Of a stretch of DNA of 35,065 nucleotides, positions 877-23,368 are shown in pieces. Below the pieces are notes generated by a model, which worked only from the letters and a program-made list of their open reading frames with translations, was not told the origin of the DNA and did not search any database. A program made the translations under genes and the position numbers. Position 1 is the stretch's first letter, and each line of letters opens with the position of its first letter. This DNA is from Candidatus Bathyarchaeota archaeon (GTDB lineage Archaea > Thermoproteota > Bathyarchaeia > Bathyarchaeales > Bathyarchaeaceae): the NCBI GenBank assembly GCA_014859755.1, contig JACUTO010000001.1, forward strand, positions 1 to 35,065, in the 5' to 3' direction.

Positions 877-1938
877 TTATTCGGTTTTCCCGGTTGTTTT
901 CTTGACCTTTGTGAAATAGACCAGAAGGGCTACTCCGCCTATTGCTATTATCGCTGTTGCGGCTACAACCCATGTAGTTGGGCAAGGCTCGGTAGTTGGT
1001 ATCGGTGGGGGTTCTTCATCAGGGAATTCTGGAATCACGACGTGGTCCATAAGTGGATAGCGGTCTTGATTGTTTTCATCGATGACGTATGGTGTGTCCC
1101 ATATGCCTGAACCATCCAGTTCCTTAGCATTTGGGTATCTATCCTCATAGTCGCTCCAGTAGTTACCGCCTGAAGGATAACCATCATCCCAAATGTTCAC
1201 TGAGATAGCCGAAAAAGGCTCCTCCCAATGAACATCGTTAACCTGTTTCGTGTTATGGATGAAGCTATTATGGTAAATAATGTTGTTTTGAGACCCAGCG
1301 AAGGGAACATGCCCACTGACGTAGATGCCTTCCTCGTTTTTTGCTATATAGTTTCCAATAATTTTGTTTGAAGACCCGAAGAAGTGGATGCCAACATCGT
1401 TGTTTATTATGTTGTTTCCAGAAATATTGTTATAGTGTGAGCCTTGCTCGAACGCGCTTACACTTCCTCCGAGCGCGACGCCACGTTTATTTGCTGTTAT
1501 GTTATTTCCGGAAATGGTGTTATTTGAAGCTAGCCAAAACCATATTCCAAGAAAGTTGTTTGTTATGTAGTTTCCAGAGATAATGTTGTTTGAAGAACCA
1601 TTGAGGAAGATACCCTCTCTGAATCCTTCGATTTCCATATTCCTAATAAACACATTGCTCCTACTCGTCAGGCTTATTCCTTTTCCGTTTCCTGTGCCTT
1701 GTAGGGTGTAGCCTGCCCCATCAACCACAATGTTATCCCTCTCCACAACAATAGAATCGTTGATGTTGCCTGTGAAGGTGTAGACGTTTCCTTCACGCTG
1801 AATCTTATCCGTTCCCTCAACACTTCCATCAGCCCTAATGTAAATTGTCTCCTCTGCTACGACTGGACTTTTGAACCTCATAACCATTGCTGTTGAAAAG
1901 AGCACAAATACAAAGGTTAACAAAACAATCTTCTTCAT
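877..1938 (-). CDS. Secreted, membrane-anchored right-handed beta-helix (PbH1/NosD-like) surface protein, copy A
   Basis: 353-aa ORF. It has a signal peptide (MKKIVLLTFVFVLFSTAMV) and many NNxIxGNxIxxN beta-helix turns. The conserved tail GGNYWSDYEDRYPN...GIWDTPY...DRYPL is typical of NosD-like archaeal proteins. The C-terminus is a TM helix plus basic tail (GVALLVYFTKVKK). It is a paralog of 5105-6268. Confidence 0.85.
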   Translation of the reverse strand: MKKIVLLTFVFVLFSTAMVMRFKSPVVAEETIYIRADGSVEGTDKIQREGNVYTFTGNINDSIVVERDNIVVDGAGYTLQGTGNGKGISLTSRSNVFIRNMEIEGFREGIFLNGSSNNIISGNYITNNFLGIWFWLASNNTISGNNITANKRGVALGGSVSAFEQGSHYNNISGNNIINNDVGIHFFGSSNKIIGNYIAKNEEGIYVSGHVPFAGSQNNIIYHNSFIHNTKQVNDVHWEEPFSAISVNIWDDGYPSGGNYWSDYEDRYPNAKELDGSGIWDTPYVIDENNQDRYPLMDHVVIPEFPDEEPPPIPTTEPCPTTWVVAATAIIAIGGVALLVYFTKVKKTTGKTE

Positions 1939-2080: not shown

Positions 2081-4612
2081 TTACCAATAGACCTCGCCAA
2101 AGTTTATTGCGACTATTAGTGCGTCATCGATGTCGACGATACCGTCACAGTTTAGGTCTGCAATTGAGGTCCACTCGGGGTCCCCTCGAATAGATCCGAA
2201 AACGCCGCTGACGATGATAGCATCATCAATGTCAACTATGCCATCGCCATTCACGTCTCCTGGACAGTGTTTCAATTCGAAAACCGCTGTGACCGTCCAG
2301 TCTTTCCAGAAGTACCAGTATGCTGGGTTCAAATAGTATTTAGTATAGCCATATGTGTAGTATTTGAAAAAGGATCTGTTTCCAGTAGAGCCGGGTTCCC
2401 AGAAGTCATTCACAAAGACCGTATGATATCCCCCGGTTATATCAATGGTTGAGCCAGTGTTTGCAAGGTTATGCATTATGTCGATGTAAACGTCTCTATT
2501 GACGAAATAATTGCCATACTGGTCCGCAGCGAGAACCTTGAAGCTGTACTGGTTTAAATGTATGTCTCCATTTCCATAGACACGCATCTTACCCCAATCC
2601 CACTTCGCAGGTGGTCCACCAGGGAAATTACCGGGCCACCACGTCTCAAATCCTTGGTAAAGTGGACAATAAATGAAAGAACATCCAAACCAGTATAATG
2701 AAGCCAGATTTAGAGCATCTTTTATCGAATAGCTAAGGCTCAAAGCGTAATAATAGAACTTAAGGATGAAGTCTTTGGCCAATACTGTGTAATACCGAAA
2801 ACTTCGGTAAGCCAGAGCGGGAGACGCATTTTCAAAGCCTATGAAACAATAAAGACCGCTGTCAGGACTGCTGTAACCATTAGAGCTTAAGCTATTAGTG
2901 TGAGTCCAAGCGTATGGCATTCCCACCGCTCTTCCGTTACCGTCCACGTACCCTATTAAGTCTCCCTGACGACATGTCCAAATGAACACAAAGAAGTGTT
3001 TGCCTAAACCAGTTTTAGGATAAATTTCATAGTCCCAGATAGTATTGCCGTTGCTGTCAAAATAGTCGTAATGTAAATATCCACCGACGTCGAGGAAACC
3101 CCCATGCCCAAAATGGAATATTGCCACACGATGGAACCCTTGCTCCTTGCTGGAGGCCCAACTTAACACGTTGCTTTTTATTGTACCTGTGTCATAAGCA
3201 TTAGTGACCTCGTATCCTTCCTGACCAAAGCGAGACGCCATGTCGGTGCAGATCTGCTGAGCTGCTGTTCTTTCATAATCAAGCTGATAATAGGTAGAGG
3301 CGTAAGTTATGGCACTTCCACCTGGTTCAGGAAGAGGCTCTGCGTTAGCTGTTGGTATTGGTATTGAGACTATAGTAAGCGGAATCAGAAGAAGAACGCT
3401 CCGCCAAGTTTCAAACATTGATTTTGGCACGTTATCAAGCCTTGAGGTCTTTTTCCTTCTAAAATAGACTGTAGTTGCCCCGAGTGCTATGGCAATTAAG
3501 ATTGGAAGCGCTACCCACGTGATTAGTGTCTGGTTTGGAGCTACTTCACCAACAGAAACTTCATTAGATGGCGGCTTAACGGAGTTTTCACTGTTCACAG
3601 GGGCTTCAGGAGATGATGGAGCACCTCCAAATATCATTGCCCCGATATAACTAACTTCTTTTATGTCTGCCCAGATTCCGACATTTATTCCGGTAACACC
3701 GCCTGGGTAAACTTTGTCTAAGCCTAGTGGGATATACCATTCAGGATACAGTGTTAAGGGATCTCCGCCACGTGCATCCTTTTCCTCCATTGCGTTGAGG
3801 AAACATAACGTTGGTTTGCCTACCTCCACTATATTAAACTCCGTTACTTCTATAGTGTCGTTGCCCATGCACACTTTCCACGAGTAGTTTTTGGCCGCGT
3901 TCATCGCGATTTCTATGGCTTCGTTCTCATCGACGTTTATGTCAGTGCCATCAATTTTATAGAGCCACCAACGGTCAATAAAGTGTTTCAAGAACCCCTT
4001 TTCAAAACCCAAGGATACGCGCTTAGAGCTGGCTTGAACGCCGTTAAATGTGAATGTCCATATGAACTCTGTATGTATTTGGTTAACAATCACTTCAAGC
4101 GTCATATTTCCTGATGTTTTTGTGATGTTTTTGTTGATGTCAATTTTGTCCACCATGCTGCGCATTTCTTGGATATATAAAGCTCCAGAATAGGCATAAT
4201 ATCTGCTGAGAAAGCCCTCAGCCATTTCAAGCACGCTAGTGACTGGTTGAGTCATGGGTGGCGAACCATCGCAATCACTTACATATATCAGCTGTAAAGT
4301 CTTGTTTACAAATGTACAAGCCACCCTTAGCATGCTTTCATTAGACTCAAGAGTGTAGTCCACAATATCTTGGGGAAGAATACCCAAGTACAAATCTTGG
4401 GGGTATTCTTTTGTTTCAGCCGCATACTCTGTTAGGTCGAGACCAACCACGTCGTTTAAGATTGCTAACCCCTTCTCCTGAGTGGATATTTCTGCCGCGT
4501 GCACACTCGGTATTAGGAATGCGTAAGCGCTATAACTCAACAGTATAACAAGGAAAACCGTTATGAACAGAAGCTTTCGTCTAAATTGGTTAGCCATTTC
4601 CATTACCTCCAT
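2081..4612 (-). CDS. Multidomain surface protein: signal peptide, X domain with a PepSY-like segment, TM hairpin, caspase/legumain-like His-Cys domain, beta-rich region, dockerin
   Basis: The ORF is open to 4690, but a GGAGGT Shine-Dalgarno-like site precedes the ATGs at 4603/4597, and the hydrophobic signal (FITVFLVILLSYSAYAFLIPSVHA/AE) follows them. Residues about 66-355 are homologous to ORF 6459-7586. A TM anchor (LITWVALPILIAIALGATTVYFRRKK) is followed by a second signal-like segment (MFETWRSVLLLIPLTIVSIPIPTANA). The motifs VAIFHFGHGG and FFVFIWTCRQG lie 44 residues apart. The C-terminus holds two DxNxDGxVDIDD dockerin repeats. Confidence 0.85.
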   Translation of the reverse strand: MEVMEMANQFRRKLLFITVFLVILLSYSAYAFLIPSVHAAEISTQEKGLAILNDVVGLDLTEYAAETKEYPQDLYLGILPQDIVDYTLESNESMLRVACTFVNKTLQLIYVSDCDGSPPMTQPVTSVLEMAEGFLSRYYAYSGALYIQEMRSMVDKIDINKNITKTSGNMTLEVIVNQIHTEFIWTFTFNGVQASSKRVSLGFEKGFLKHFIDRWWLYKIDGTDINVDENEAIEIAMNAAKNYSWKVCMGNDTIEVTEFNIVEVGKPTLCFLNAMEEKDARGGDPLTLYPEWYIPLGLDKVYPGGVTGINVGIWADIKEVSYIGAMIFGGAPSSPEAPVNSENSVKPPSNEVSVGEVAPNQTLITWVALPILIAIALGATTVYFRRKKTSRLDNVPKSMFETWRSVLLLIPLTIVSIPIPTANAEPLPEPGGSAITYASTYYQLDYERTAAQQICTDMASRFGQEGYEVTNAYDTGTIKSNVLSWASSKEQGFHRVAIFHFGHGGFLDVGGYLHYDYFDSNGNTIWDYEIYPKTGLGKHFFVFIWTCRQGDLIGYVDGNGRAVGMPYAWTHTNSLSSNGYSSPDSGLYCFIGFENASPALAYRSFRYYTVLAKDFILKFYYYALSLSYSIKDALNLASLYWFGCSFIYCPLYQGFETWWPGNFPGGPPAKWDWGKMRVYGNGDIHLNQYSFKVLAADQYGNYFVNRDVYIDIMHNLANTGSTIDITGGYHTVFVNDFWEPGSTGNRSFFKYYTYGYTKYYLNPAYWYFWKDWTVTAVFELKHCPGDVNGDGIVDIDDAIIVSGVFGSIRGDPEWTSIADLNCDGIVDIDDALIVAINFGEVYW

Positions 4613-5104
4613 TTTTTGGTGGAAATCTCTGTCTTTTCTACTGTTCTTTTTCTGGAATCTAAGCCGACTCCCGTCCGCTCCCCTTTCCATGAGGCGTGAG
4701 GCTTAATTCCCCACGCTTTCCCATGCTAGGCGGTGAAACGCCTCCGAAGGAATCACCCTCGGCTTTAATCTCATTTTTTATGTTTTCATGGAAATTGTTA
4801 ATAAAATTTACTGAATGTTTTCAAGATAGACTATGCATCTACAATCGCGACAAATTTGCATTTATTATTCAAGTCAGTACATAAGTTGATGGGACATTCG
4901 TGTATCTCTTGCTTGAGCAAATACATGCAGAGGAGAAGAAAACGTTTCATTTATGCAACCAAGGTATAGTAGAGATATCTCCCGCAAACTCTCCTTTTTT
5001 GTTTTTGAAGGATCCACGAATCGGTTTGCGAAGGCAGCGGTGTGTCATGGCAACCGCAATCACCTTGAGCATAAGTAAAGGTGATGCCCATGGGGAAACT
5101 CTTG

Positions 5105-6268
5105 TTATTCGATTCTCCTGATTTTTCTGAAATAGACCAGAAGGGCTACTCCAACTGCCACTATTATCGCTATGGCAATTACAATCCATGTTGTTGGGAA
5201 AGGCTCTGAATGTTGAGCTATTCTGAAATAGACTATTTCAGAGGCTCCAGTGTACCCGAATGCATCGTTTGCATAAACTCTTAGGATGTGAGAACCGTCA
5301 GATAATCCAGTTAGGGTTGTGTTTCCAGCAATTGTCACAGTGGCTTGGCCGTCCAAGCTGTAACCGATCCATGAAGTTGGTTTATTCACGGTAAAAGTTA
5401 AGGAAACATTGTTTCCAGTGTACGTCTTGTTTTCTGGCGAAACAACGAAAATAGTAGGTGGCGTAGTGTCTGGAAACTCTGGAATTACGACGGGACTCAT
5501 AAGGGGATAGCGGTCTTGATTGTTGGCGTCGATTATGTATGGTGTGTCCCATATGCCTGAATCATCCAGTTCTGTAGCGTTTGGGTATCTATCTTCATAG
5601 TCGCTCCAGTAGTTGCCGCCAGAAGGATAACCATCATCCAAAATATTTGCCGAGGAAGGAAGCCAAGGATTGGACCAACATATATCTTCAACCTGTTTCG
5701 TGTTATTAATGAAGTTATTATGGTAAATAAGGTCATGCGAACCGTGGAATAAGATACCAATTTCGTTGTTTGCTATGTAATTTCCAGTAATGTTGTTTGA
5801 AACCCCAGCCGTCCAAATGCCACTATCAGTGTTCGCCGTTATGTTGTTTCGGGTAATAGTGTTGTTTGAAGAGGGCACGAGGTAGATGCCATCCATGAAA
5901 CTCCGTATTTCCATGTTCTTGATCGTTACGTTGCTTCTGCCTGACAGGTCTATTCCCCGAGAAATATAAGCTGCTGTTCCCAGAAGGGTGAAGCCTGCAC
6001 CATCAATCACAATATTGTCCCTATCAACTTCTATGCCATAATCACCATAATCAATACTAATTTTGCCCGTGAAGACGTAGACGTTTCCGTCACGGTGAAT
6101 CTTATCCGTTCCCTCGACACTTCCGTCAGCCCTGATGTGAATACTTCCACTTGCTTCTACCATGTTGATTTTTGGAAAAGAAACTATCAAGGAACAAAGT
6201 ATCAAGAGCGGAACAAATCTTGATACCAATCTTTTTGTGTTGGATACAACCAACGTTTTACCCAACAT
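5105..6268 (-). CDS. Secreted, membrane-anchored NosD-like beta-helix surface protein with an extra Ig-like domain, copy B
   Basis: The ORF is open to 6406. I prefer the ATG at 6268 because MLGKTLVVSNTKRLVSRFVPLLILCSLIVSF forms a signal peptide and the mature N-terminus (IHIRADGSVEGTDKI) aligns with copy A. It has beta-helix repeats and the same GGNYWSDYEDRYPN...DRYPLM tail. An Ig-like insert spans 5219-5467 (TIFVVSPENKTYTGNNVSLTFTV...SHILRVYANDAFG). The C-terminal anchor is GVALLVYFRKIRR. Confidence 0.8.
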   Translation of the reverse strand: MLGKTLVVSNTKRLVSRFVPLLILCSLIVSFPKINMVEASGSIHIRADGSVEGTDKIHRDGNVYVFTGKISIDYGDYGIEVDRDNIVIDGAGFTLLGTAAYISRGIDLSGRSNVTIKNMEIRSFMDGIYLVPSSNNTITRNNITANTDSGIWTAGVSNNITGNYIANNEIGILFHGSHDLIYHNNFINNTKQVEDICWSNPWLPSSANILDDGYPSGGNYWSDYEDRYPNATELDDSGIWDTPYIIDANNQDRYPLMSPVVIPEFPDTTPPTIFVVSPENKTYTGNNVSLTFTVNKPTSWIGYSLDGQATVTIAGNTTLTGLSDGSHILRVYANDAFGYTGASEIVYFRIAQHSEPFPTTWIVIAIAIIVAVGVALLVYFRKIRRIE

Positions 6269-6425
6269 AATTATTAGCTCTGTACAAAAAAAGATTTGTT
6301 CCTTGATTAGACTAATCCAGAAACTAAGGTCAAAATCCTTTATCCTGAAAATGAACCACCAGAGATCACTAGATAAAAGGATTAGTAGAGATTTTGGATG
6401 AGACATCAGTCTTAATCACAAACTA

Positions 6426-6458: not shown

Positions 6459-7586
6459 TTAATCTTTTCTTCTTCTATATAACGCTACACCACGTATTAT
6501 GGCTAACACAATTGGAACTGCTATCAAGAGCGGTGTTGGGTCCAGACCTGTTTTGCCAGTAGAGCCACCAAGTGGAGTTTCATTGGGTGGCACTGTTGGG
6601 GTCCCTCCATCAGGGGGGCCTGCAAGGCCACCAGTCGCCGTGACAGAAACAACTTCTCCCGTGTCCGCCCACATTCTAACTTTGATGCCGTTCCACCCAT
6701 AGTAAAGCGTATCGAAATACAATTGAATGTCCCAGAGGGGATATAACGTGTCAGGTTCTCTGGGTTGTGTGCTGAATTCTACTTCTACTGGTTCGTCTAC
6801 TATGTTAAATTCTACTTCTATCCACTCGTTCTGCCAAATCTTTAATGTATAATTTTGTGCGTGTTCCCTTGCAGTGCGTATGGCTTCTTCTTCAGAGACA
6901 TTAACATCTGTGCTGCCTATCTTGTAGAGGTCCCAATCGTCCCTAAATGAATTAAAAGCTCCATTTAGAAAACTGAAGTGTATCCTGTTCCTATCAAAGT
7001 CAATGCCGTTGACCGTGTATATCCAATCGATGTATGTATAGGTTTCACCTGATATTTTAAGCTTCACGTTGCCCGACGTTGTTGTCATGGGTTTTGGTTC
7101 AGTAACCGTGTCCAACATGCCCTTCACTTCATGGATATATGAAGCTCCGGAATAGGTTTGGTATCTGTCAAGAAGACCCCTAGCGTCATCAAGACTGTTT
7201 GTGGAGGGTTGAGCAAAAAGCGGTGAACCCTCAAGCAGGTATAGCTTACAGTAAACCAGAGCATTGTTTCTAAATCTACAGGTCACATCTAATTTGCTTC
7301 CAGCAGATTCGAGGGCGTATTTCACTCTCTCCTCAGTAAGGCCGTCCAAATCAGAGGGAAAATCCATGTGGCTTACCAGTTTTGCGTTATATTTTGTCAC
7401 GTCCAGTTTGACTACGTCTGTTAAGAATGTCAGCGTCTTCTCTGGAGCAGATAACTCTGTCGAGTATGCTTGATTGGGTGCGCCATACACTAAAGATCCA
7501 GGTATTGGAGCAGTCACCATTAGAAGACACACTAAAATCGTAGAGAACAAATGCTCCCGAGCGCATATTTTCCTCAGAATTTTCAT
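6459..7586 (-). CDS. Secreted, membrane-anchored 'X' protein with a PepSY-like C-terminal segment, paralog of the N-terminal half of 2081-4612
   Basis: 375 aa with a signal peptide (LFSTILVCLLMVTAPIPGSLVYGA). It is colinear with residues 66-355 of the 869-aa ORF (e.g. EKTLTFLTDVVKLDVTKY vs EKGLAILNDVVGLDLTEY; DRYQTYSGASYIHE vs SRYYAYSGALYIQE; LYKIGSTDVNVSEEEAI vs LYKIDGTDINVDENEAI). A Pro/Thr/Gly linker is followed by a TM helix and RRRKD. Confidence 0.8.
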   Translation of the reverse strand: MKILRKICAREHLFSTILVCLLMVTAPIPGSLVYGAPNQAYSTELSAPEKTLTFLTDVVKLDVTKYNAKLVSHMDFPSDLDGLTEERVKYALESAGSKLDVTCRFRNNALVYCKLYLLEGSPLFAQPSTNSLDDARGLLDRYQTYSGASYIHEVKGMLDTVTEPKPMTTTSGNVKLKISGETYTYIDWIYTVNGIDFDRNRIHFSFLNGAFNSFRDDWDLYKIGSTDVNVSEEEAIRTAREHAQNYTLKIWQNEWIEVEFNIVDEPVEVEFSTQPREPDTLYPLWDIQLYFDTLYYGWNGIKVRMWADTGEVVSVTATGGLAGPPDGGTPTVPPNETPLGGSTGKTGLDPTPLLIAVPIVLAIIRGVALYRRRKD

Positions 7587-21554: not shown

Positions 21555-22466
21555 TTAGAAGAACTCCGAGATTTTAATGTCTGGAAGTCTTGGAAGTCCT
21601 GTTCTGGCGCCCATTTTTGATATGCAACGGGCTGCAACGAAATTTCCTAGTCTTCCGCATTTGTATAGGTCTCGTCTTTTGATTAAGCCGTAGAGAAAAC
21701 CGGCGCAGAAGGCGTCACCGGCACCTGTTGTGTCCACAAGTTTTTTTTCATACGGCTCAACCAAGTGTTTCTCTTTGCCATTCGTGACGTAGCATCCTCT
21801 CTCGCCGAGCTTGACTGCAACCACGCTGACACCTTCTTTTATCAATATTTTTGAAGCCCTCTCGTAATTTTTTCCCGTAAGTAGTCTAATTTCGTTTTCA
21901 TTTGGAAGCATGACAAAACTTCTCTTGATTATCGGCTTCAGGGATGTCAAGCTCTTTCTTGCGTAAAGGGTTCCAGGATCGAAACTTATTTTGACGTCAG
22001 AAAGCTGGTTTATGAGTTGTTTTTGGGCTTCGAAGGGTTTTTCTCCGACGAATGACGTTAGGTGGAGAAATTCGGTATTGGCGACATAATCCAAATTGAT
22101 CTCTTTGAATTCTAGCCAGTCGTTGACGCCTGGGTCGACATATAAGGCTCTTTCTCCCTTTCCGTCTACGTATCCCATGACGACGCCGCTTCTGCCTTTC
22201 CTCGAAATTATTATTCCGCTGGTATCGACGTTTTCTTTTCTGAAATCCTTTAGGAGGAGTTCTCCTTCGCGGTCTTCAGCGACCTTTCCAATATAACCTG
22301 TTTTTAGTCCCAGTCTAGCCAAGCCTACGATGGTGTTTGCGGCAGAACCACCGGGAGATTCTTTGAAGCCTATGACGAAGCCTTCTTCTTCCTCTCTGGC
22401 GATCATGTTTACCTTGTACAGTTTGTCTACGTTGAGGGCACCAACGCCTATAACATCGAAGGTCAT
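21555..22466 (-). CDS. PfkB/ribokinase-family sugar or nucleoside kinase
   Basis: 303 aa. It has the N-terminal [10 protein letters not shown] and the C-terminal PfkB signature [16 protein letters not shown]. Its ATG overlaps the ftr stop (ATGA). Confidence 0.8.
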
Positions 22467-23368
22467 GGGAACAACTCTCGCAGGTATATCTTGTGTCTTC
22501 CAAGTTTTCCTCCGTAATTTCCCGCTGAGATTTTAACGACTCCGTTTACATCGCCAGCGCTTTGGATACCAACCTTCATCGCTTCCTTTACTGCCTCGAT
22601 GGATGTGCCGTTGATCACAATCTCGGGGATATAATTGACGCCTTCTGGAACCTTTGACTCCTTTCCCAACTTTCCCTTTAGCGTTGGACAGTAGGGGTGG
22701 TTGGTGGTGGGACCTATCCACGGAAATTTTGTTTCGGGTTTTGAGCCGGCTGAGCATATGTCGAAGGGGGTGGTGACTCCTTCAATTTGGTGTACGGCTT
22801 TCAGCGCCTTTCTACCTGCTTCCATGACTGCTCGCTTGGTTTTGCACATGTACCAAAAGTTTGCTCCCATCACTCCCTTGGCGTAACCCAACTGACGCTC
22901 TATGAGAAAGTCAGAAACCATAATTGGGACAACAATCATGTTTCGTCCGCAAAGTTCCGCCTCCCATTCAAAACCGTCTCCGCAGTGACCAACCCTCTTC
23001 ATCATATCAATTTTTCCATCTGAGTTTGGCAAAGCGTCAAAAATGGCTGTGAAAGGCTTCACGAGTATGTCCTGCCGTATGCGGTACGAAAGTTCCACCT
23101 CTAGCTTCTTAACCGACTCGTCGAGGGGCTTACCCTCCCCGATTCCTCCCCAAAACTGTAGAATCACGCCTTTGCGTCCGTCTAGGGTTTCCTTCTCGCC
23201 TAACCACCTTTCAATGCCTCCTTCGATTCTGCCGATGACTATTGATGGTGTGGCGGTGGCGTCATGAGCTGCCCTTTTCAACACTTCTTCATCGTCAGCG
23301 GTGACGATAACTCTGGAATATAAACCGTCGAAAGCTTCTGCGTAAGTGTCTTCGATTTCAGTCTTCAT
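22463..23368 (-). CDS. ftr: Formylmethanofuran:tetrahydromethanopterin N-formyltransferase
   Basis: 301 aa. The N-terminal [10 protein letters not shown] and the C-terminal [23 protein letters not shown]...[15 protein letters not shown] closely resemble my recollection of methanogen Ftr sequences. Confidence 0.8.

Follow-up and report, generated by a model that had tools for sequence, protein, structure and literature searches.

A Bathyarchaeia gene with predicted PepSY-like and caspase-fold ectodomains joined by a hydrophobic hairpin: a probable precursor of a two-part surface protease system

Described systems and the layout of the focal gene

A signal peptide, an ectodomain, a first transmembrane segment (TM1), a short cytoplasmic loop, a second transmembrane segment (TM2) and a large second ectodomain make up the vertebrate proteins astrotactin-1 and astrotactin-2, which are cut just after TM2 by signal peptidase (10.1101/493858). 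In this study, we describe a gene with this layout from a Candidatus Bathyarchaeota archaeon (assembly GCA_014859755.1), located in a 35,065-nucleotide stretch of contig JACUTO010000001.1 that we refer to as the window. The focal protein is unrelated to the astrotactins in sequence, fold and organism, and cleavage, which is demonstrated in astrotactin, is here proposed from conservation. Viral glycoprotein polyproteins with internal signal peptides also share the layout, and they too are unrelated in sequence and fold. In prokaryotes, the FbcH cytochrome b/c1 precursor of Bradyrhizobium is a polyprotein split at an internal signal-peptide-like segment, but it is a respiratory complex subunit with another topology. 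With moderate confidence, we read the focal gene as the precursor of a two-part surface protease system that is typical of Bathyarchaeia and has a cleaved internal signal peptide.

The individual modules have described relatives as well. PepSY domains act in the propeptides of M4 peptidases and in YpeB. The predicted N-terminal module of the focal protein, an array of three helix-plus-four-strand units (PepSY3), resembles YpeB and the M4 propeptides of vibriolysin and thermolysin. Like YpeB, it would be anchored in the membrane and have a secreted enzyme as its partner; like an M4 propeptide, it is made in one polypeptide with its putative peptidase. It differs from both in that its partner has the predicted fold of a cysteine peptidase and not of a metallopeptidase, and from the M4 propeptide in that two predicted membrane passes separate it from the enzyme, where an M4 propeptide is contiguous.

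The C-terminal module (C-module) has a predicted fold like that of clan CD peptidases, namely the C14 caspases, metacaspases and orthocaspases (for example GSU0716/3bij), the C25 gingipains and C11 clostripain. The clan CD order beta1-alpha1-beta2-alpha2-beta3-His ... alpha3-beta4-Cys is kept in the model, with the His in an H-G motif and the Cys just past a hydrophobic strand, and gingipains and clostripain are exported, as the focal domain is predicted to be. Unlike them, the focal domain has no detectable sequence similarity to clan members in Pfam, NCBIfam or the PDB, contains a beta-hairpin inserted between His and Cys, and has a PepSY-like partner attached through a transmembrane hairpin. 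The protein ends in a type I dockerin with two Ca-binding repeats, as in cohesin-dockerin (cellulosome-type) display, but no cohesin is encoded on the contig. An extracellular clan-CD peptidase fits the exported gingipain-like (C25) enzymes of this clan reported in Bathyarchaeota (PMC6752024). Literature searches on Bathyarchaeia combined with PepSY or with caspase found nothing.

The focal gene is one unbroken minus-strand open reading frame (ORF) with its stop codon at 2081-2083. Its first in-frame ATG lies at 4690 and its second at 4612 (M27), the start taken by an earlier note that had been made from the letters of this DNA. The likeliest start is the ATG at 4597 (MANQFRRKLLF...), because GGAGGT stands upstream of it, the NCBI call of 838 residues begins there, and the homologs have comparable N-termini (such as MAKETKRKLLF). 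In the NCBI entry, the product is named hypothetical protein IBX38_00010, Candidatus Bathyarchaeota archaeon. From the N-terminus, the protein comprises a signal peptide, an ectodomain of ~290 residues, TM1, a 20-residue basic loop, TM2, a His/Cys domain of ~260 residues, a beta-sandwich and the dockerin (Table 1), and 419 residues follow the TANA motif that ends TM2.

Table 1. Features of the focal gene and its neighbours, in window positions (aa, amino acids; pLDDT, predicted local distance difference test; HMM, hidden Markov model).
Feature	Position	Strand	Evidence
Whole focal gene, 838 aa + stop, probable precursor of two-ectodomain surface protein	2081..4597	-	GGAGGT before ATG 4597; P0001 100% identical, 838 aa
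N-terminal signal peptide MANQFRRKLLFITVFLVILLSYSAYAFLIPSVHA, predicted cleavage VHA/AE	4496..4597	-	hydropathy; feature also in homologs
Predicted triple PepSY-like ectodomain (PepSY3), three helix-plus-beta-sheet repeats	3626..4495	-	AlphaFold2 pLDDT 87.5; Foldseek
Disordered Pro/Ser/Glu-rich stalk, PepSY3 to TM1	3527..3625	-	pLDDT <50, model residues 291-321
TM1 LITWVALPILIAIALGATTVYF, then RRKK; predicted stop-transfer anchor, counterpart of C-terminal anchor of stand-alone PepSY3 paralogs	3461..3526	-	hydropathy, homologs
Basic loop RRKKTSRLDNVPKSMFETWR, predicted cytoplasmic, also n-region of internal signal peptide; holds ATG 3418 (M425)	3401..3460	-	family loop composition
TM2 SVLLLIPLTIVSIPIPTANA, candidate internal signal-peptide h- and c-regions, ends TANA/EP	3341..3400	-	conserved cleavage motif; position of stand-alone signal peptide
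Predicted caspase-fold (clan CD-like) domain; putative catalytic His529 (3104-3106, FHFGHGG) and Cys573 (2972-2974, IWTCRQG)	2555..3340	-	AlphaFold2, Foldseek, conservation
Beta-sandwich spacer, copy number varies in homologs	2270..2554	-	all-beta model residues 265-356; local HMM matches
Type I dockerin, two Ca-binding repeats DVNGDGIVDIDD and DLNCDGIVDIDD	2084..2269	-	Pfam PF00404
Stand-alone paralog: signal peptide, PepSY3, one C-terminal TM anchor; unfused clade	6459..7586	-	ORF, alignment, tree
NosD-like beta-helix surface protein, signal peptide and C-terminal anchor, directly downstream of paralog	5105..6268	-	Pfam NosD, E 2.2e-21
Second NosD-like beta-helix surface protein, C-terminal anchor, directly downstream of focal gene	877..1938	-	Pfam NosD, E 1.3e-26

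Conserved architecture and predicted folds

Homologs were collected with a profile of PepSY3 alone, searched against 1.84 billion cluster representatives (50% identity) at E<=1e-3, and by scanning a single genome of each GTDB species. The profile matched 1490 clusters, and architectures were counted in the best 143 of them. Of these 143, 100 had the fused layout (signal peptide, PepSY3, TM1, loop, TM2 and then a passenger of 150 residues or more), 16 had PepSY3 and one C-terminal anchor, as in the window's paralog, and 27 were fragments and other forms. A local HMM found the caspase-like domain in the passengers of all 100 fused clusters. The genome scan gave 224 loci, and among the best 80, from which architectures were counted, the gene is fused at 42, in many Bathyarchaeia lineages and at 31-51% identity.

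The two ectodomains were predicted separately with AlphaFold2 from homolog alignments of 30-34 sequences. The C-terminal model (pLDDT 92.8) consists of an alpha/beta domain and, after it, a beta-sandwich. In the PDB, Foldseek found 79 matches to this model at E<=1e-3 (best E 4.9e-7, probability 1.00), including caspase-9, GSU0716, SAVED-CHAT, metacaspase-9 and MALT1. The invariant polar residues of the homolog alignment include a His (FHFGHGG) and a Cys (IWTCRQG). In model numbering, H79 (VAIFHFGHGG) comes after strand 72-77 and C123 (FVFIWTC) after strand 117-121, so that His precedes Cys, each stands past a hydrophobic strand and the His is followed by Gly, as in the clan CD dyad. Of the 100 fused cluster representatives, 97 have both residues, as do 42/42 fused genome loci. 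Hence, the clan-CD-like domain with His and Cys that the earlier note had proposed holds at the level of fold. No curated clan CD family (C14, C13, C11, C25 and others) was matched at E<=1 in either Pfam or NCBIfam, the C-module profile retrieved nothing relevant from PDB sequences, and hhalign produced no alignment (probability 0.2) between the domain profile and a manually entered human caspase-3 sequence. Because these searches found nothing, the assignment is one of fold and motifs, and the model leads us to regard the C-module as a putative clan-CD-type cysteine peptidase.

A stand-alone caspase-like protein (L004:4303-5277, P0045) has Asn where the conserved His would stand (FIFANGANG) and retains the Cys; to judge from these residues, it may be an inactive pseudo-enzyme variant. 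Asn also stands at this position in 1/100 fused cluster representatives.

The N-terminal model shows three helix-plus-sheet repeats, a tandem form of the PepSY fold, in which a helix packs on a four-stranded antiparallel sheet. Foldseek matched it to the C-terminal domain of YpeB (5boi, E 2.5e-6) and to the propeptide of vibriolysin MCP-02 (3nqy_A, E 1.8e-4), with no other significant match. The Pfam PepSY model (PF03413) matched neither the focal protein nor its paralog at E<=1, and NCBIfam had no match for this module; here too, the earlier guess of a PepSY-like domain stands at fold level.

At the C-terminus, the suggested dockerin was borne out by Pfam: Dockerin_1 (PF00404) matches residues 810-860 with E 1.2e-5 and 25.8 bits against a cutoff of 22.9, and the two D-x-N/D-x-D-G-x-x-D repeats are seen in the sequence. 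It is the one domain of the focal protein and the paralog that Pfam and NCBIfam recognise. Homologs have PEGA, PKD or Flg_new_2 Pfam matches in the beta-sandwich region, and most family members carry PKD, PEGA, PPC or Flg_new_2 domains in place of the dockerin.

The junction between the ectodomains and its proposed processing

A Kyte-Doolittle scan of the focal protein gave exactly three hydrophobic segments, whose coordinates were checked by translation. The third, TM2, is the second membrane or signal segment that the earlier note had claimed, and hydropathy, the junctions of homologs and the composition of the family loop all support its picture of two ectodomains joined by a TM hairpin. 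TM1 resembles the C-terminal anchors of neighbouring genes. TM1, basic loop and TM2 are present in 29/29 homologs that contain the junction, and across the family the loop has a median length of 16 residues, with a median of 6 Lys and Arg and of 0 Asp and Glu. Given this strongly basic loop and the Ca-binding dockerin at the C-terminus, the two ectodomains are expected outside the cell and the loop in the cytoplasm.

TM2 has the layout of a Sec-type signal peptide, with a positive n-region, a hydrophobic h-region and small residues at -3 and -1. A (V/A/S/T/I)-x-A site follows TM2 in 98/100 homologs, compared with 33% of control windows from the same proteins. Ala is found at -1 in 98/98 of these sites, and position -3 is V in 46, A in 19, S in 13, T in 11 and I in 9. 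The site lies a median of 23 residues past the last basic residue (range 15-29). In PMC3509430, A-x-A is given as the canonical Sec cleavage motif. The TM2 sequences have diverged almost fully across the homologs and the site has been retained, with Ala at -1 in 98/100 and a small or aliphatic residue at -3 against 33% of controls, which argues for ongoing selection for a cleavage site. Because the motif is conserved and astrotactin provides a precedent, we infer that signal peptidase cuts after A450 (nt 3341/3340), which would yield two surface proteins. Cleavage at the A-x-A after TM2, which the earlier note had not considered, is the reading that best fits the data.

The precursor would then mature as follows. 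The Sec system would insert the polypeptide, with the N-terminal signal peptide exporting the triple PepSY-like module until TM1 stops transfer and leaves the K/R-rich loop in the cytoplasm. TM2, acting as an internal signal peptide, would set export going again for the caspase-fold domain, beta-sandwich and dockerin, and signal peptidase would cut after the conserved A-x-A (TANA/EP). Two products would result: PepSY3 with the hairpin as its anchor, and a free clan-CD-type cysteine peptidase, which its dockerin, or binding to PepSY3, might hold at the surface. By analogy with the M4 propeptides and YpeB, and in view of the fused and split gene arrangements (see below), PepSY3 could serve as a membrane-bound tether, chaperone or inhibitor of the peptidase. 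In its widest form, the proposal is that Bathyarchaeia routinely make two surface proteins from one ORF by means of a cleaved internal signal peptide, one belonging to a new clan-CD family and the other a dedicated triple-PepSY tether or inhibitor; this generalisation we advance only tentatively.

Several observations weigh against this interpretation. Both domain assignments depend on predicted folds, with moderate TM-scores on the target (0.47-0.5), and neither ectodomain is similar in sequence to any curated family, nor the C-module to caspase-3. The 20-residue TM2 could persist as a plain membrane helix. A Cys is present in the TM2 h-region of 89/100 homologs, usually in an LLC motif ~7 residues past the last basic residue (for example ..GGALCLLISL.. 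in P0004), and the focal protein is without it (equivalent window 3380-3400). The dockerin has no cohesin partner on the contig. PepSY3 is also fused to NosD beta-helix passengers (P0031, P0035) and occurs in a TM-less form, and it may be a general anchor or stalk and not a protease-specific regulator.

The likeliest alternative is that TM2 is a permanent helix, that both ectodomains stay on one polypeptide and that the A-x-A is a relic of an ancestral signal peptide. Both hydrophobic segments are long enough to span the membrane, and the fused forms fall in one clade (see below), so that their shared features may partly reflect common descent. The Cys kept in 89/100 homologs suggests a lasting role for the helix and shows constraint on the TM2 helix itself. 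This is no argument against cleavage, since TM2 would stay in the membrane with the PepSY3 fragment even after cutting, and a relic sits poorly with an A-x-A kept at 98/100, against 33% in control windows, while TM2 diverged around it. Altogether, we judge an uncleaved hairpin to be unlikely. A reading of the Cys as part of a lipobox was rejected, as Leu precedes it and it lies only ~7 residues after the basic region.

The earlier note had also suggested that the internal ATG at 3418 produces a separate secreted protein, here the caspase-like one. M425 lies six residues before the h-region, MFETWR-SVLLL... would serve as a signal peptide, and the A/T-rich VYFRRKK codons ~45 nt upstream could, on a reading of the sequence, resemble an archaeal TATA element. 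However, nothing like a Shine-Dalgarno sequence precedes 3418, whereas GGAGGT precedes 4597, and a Met stands between TM1 and TM2 in only 34/100 homologs, so an internal start is not a conserved mechanism. Such a start is unlikely as a general mechanism, and an added product of this kind is improbable.

We regard as very improbable a role of the caspase-fold domain as a surface transpeptidase or processing enzyme that acts, in the manner of legumain or GPI8, on adjacent anchored NosD-like proteins. Clan CD includes transamidases such as GPI8, and the gene is flanked here, in L001 and in L004 by NosD-like proteins whose C-terminal anchor motifs are conserved; these neighbours are not constant, with none at L002, and TM1 and the anchor motifs are poorly conserved across the family.

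Family distribution, origin of the fusion and genomic surroundings

When a protein database was searched with the full-length sequence, 35 relatives came up, every one of them from a metagenome or a metagenome-assembled genome of Bathyarchaeia, and ~24/35 covered at least 76% of the query. Nearly all of the best 80 genome loci likewise belong to Bathyarchaeia, and a genome has several copies. They include complete genomes (CP122380.1, CP170178.1), which makes a chimeric-assembly origin of the homologs implausible. In the focal DNA, the frame runs unbroken through the junction, as the earlier note had read it, and since the same unbroken arrangement is found in independent assemblies, it is not an artefact of assembly.

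In a neighbour-joining tree of PepSY3, the fused forms make up one clade, in which the few exceptions are truncated or frameshifted copies, and the paralog of the window falls with unfused forms in a separate, old clade. The paralog stops directly after its anchor (...GVALYRRRKD-stop), as had been stated, and its ectodomain is 38% identical to that of the focal protein. The fused architecture is dominant in a large family and its members form a single clade; thus the fusion is not recent, and the tree and counts indicate that it is probably old and happened once.

The modules are also found as separate neighbouring genes, at 13 of the best 80 loci and in L004 and L005. The order in these pairs is a caspase-like gene of ~290-340 residues with a signal peptide and then a PepSY3-TM gene with its own signal peptide, and the gap in L004 is 16 bp. 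L080 and L082 are tandem arrays in which the next caspase-like gene begins 113 bp after a PepSY3-TM gene, and loss of the stop codon in an array of this type would give the fused form. Stand-alone caspase-like genes have ordinary N-terminal signal peptides (...TVKA/YGYDY, ...KTANA/TRAS), which sit where the fused protein has TM2. As both modules exist as separate adjacent genes and the stand-alone signal peptide takes the position of TM2, the joining of a gene for an anchored protein to one for a secreted protein is supported. Modules that alternate between fused and split forms are classically taken to act jointly, and a functional link between PepSY3 and the caspase-like module is indirectly supported by the gene arrangements.

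Of the earlier proposal of a recent fusion by stop-codon loss, the origin in gene fusion stands, given the split adjacent genes elsewhere, and the recency does not. We give next to no credence to a recent fusion or an assembly artefact particular to this contig: stand-alone versions of both modules exist and in the L080 array a caspase-like gene with a signal peptide lies 113 bp downstream of a PepSY3-TM gene, but the same continuous layout recurs in 100 of the best 143 clusters and at 42 genome loci, and the fused clade is distinct from the window's own stand-alone paralog.

The earlier note had also pointed to orthologous loci as a place to look for a break near the junction. One was found in the closest genome relative, L003 (GCA_038841945.1, JAWBTB010000056.1; L003:1139-1870), ~69% identical in the caspase region. 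The L003 copy is split into three ORFs by a frameshift in the TM1-TM2 loop, at the homopolymer gaaaaccccc (~L003:1200), and by an in-frame stop inside the caspase-like domain (L003:1859-1861). Because this second break sits inside the domain, L003 looks like a decaying (pseudogene) or error-containing copy and not like a natural two-gene ancestor.

The PepSY-like, caspase-like and dockerin folds are each known singly, and so is the principle of internal-signal-peptide processing. What is new is a large Bathyarchaeia-restricted family that curated models do not recognise, the pairing, as modelled, of a PepSY-like array with a clan-CD-fold enzyme, and a conserved junction of anchor, loop and cleavable signal in a prokaryotic protein. 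In anoxic sediments, few archaea are as abundant as the Bathyarchaeia, which are believed to feed in part on detrital protein; most of their surface and secreted proteins bear the label hypothetical. Standard annotation misses this predicted exported caspase-fold family with intact His and Cys, and peptidase inventories of sediment metagenomes may therefore undercount. The conserved layout of anchor, basic loop and cleavable signal is a clear candidate for a prokaryotic polyprotein processed by signal peptidase, and the alternation of fused and split genes predicts a specific partnership between PepSY and peptidase. If these proposals are correct, cysteine peptidases would join metallopeptidases as enzymes regulated by PepSY, prokaryotes would have a polyprotein of the astrotactin or viral type, and the family would probably be a major unannotated part of the extracellular proteolytic machinery of Bathyarchaeia.

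With regard to individual loci, L082 (CAYGHY010000316.1), a contig of 3.4 kb, was assigned by binning to an Oscillospiraceae bacterium; its PepSY3 C-terminal tail and the compared motifs are identical to those of L080, from Bathyarchaeia, and the two share the same caspase-PepSY3 array. L075 was assigned to Thorarchaeota, and mis-binning is probable for L082 and L075 alike. In P0035, PepSY3 is joined to NosD through a hairpin, and in P0031 directly; the paralog and the NosD-like gene downstream of it in the window are the split counterpart of the fused P0035. A TM-less subfamily of ~430-465 residues, with an N-terminal extension, has PepSY3 at its C-terminus and ends right after a WADTGEV motif. 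It forms its own clade, has no caspase-like gene adjacent and is found at L044, L049, L050, L056, L057, L062-L064, L070, L071, L075, L076, L078, L079, L081, L083, L085 and other loci.

As for sorting signals, no NCBIfam CTERM model and no PGF or PEF motif marks the focal TM1 as an archaeosortase substrate (PGF-CTERM/PEF-CTERM), and neither archaeosortase nor signal peptidase genes are encoded on the contig. P0035 has a PEF-CTERM-like IPEFPSW motif at both TM1 and its C-terminal anchor. A role in defence, suggested by the SAVED-CHAT matches, was rejected, as the domain is predicted to be exported and a PADLOC scan gave no defence-system match; because of the latter, we take the SAVED-CHAT matches to reflect a shared fold and not a defence role.

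Beyond the paralog, the rest of the contig (8296-35037) carries housekeeping genes: NADH:flavin oxidoreductase, LonB, a purine-biosynthesis cluster (AIR carboxylase, SAICAR synthetase, FGAM synthase, GAR synthetase), AdoMet synthetase and, at 22463-23368, formylmethanofuran-H4MPT formyltransferase. The NosD-like ORF 5105-6406 opens mechanically at 6406; its likely start is the ATG at 6268 (MLGKTLVVSNTKRLVSRFVPLLILCSLIVSFPKINMVEA/SG), which yields a normal signal peptide. The C-termini of the NosD-like proteins in the window (877-1010, 5105-5215) share the anchor pattern (E)PFPxxW(I/V)...G(V/A)xLLVYF(K/R)K(I/V)KK with the C-terminus of P0002 and with a kelch protein (L003:3212-4438), and no NCBIfam CTERM sorting-signal model matches this pattern. 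Some of the proteins that carry it also have an IPEFP motif further upstream, and the pattern may represent a lineage-specific sorting or anchoring signal.

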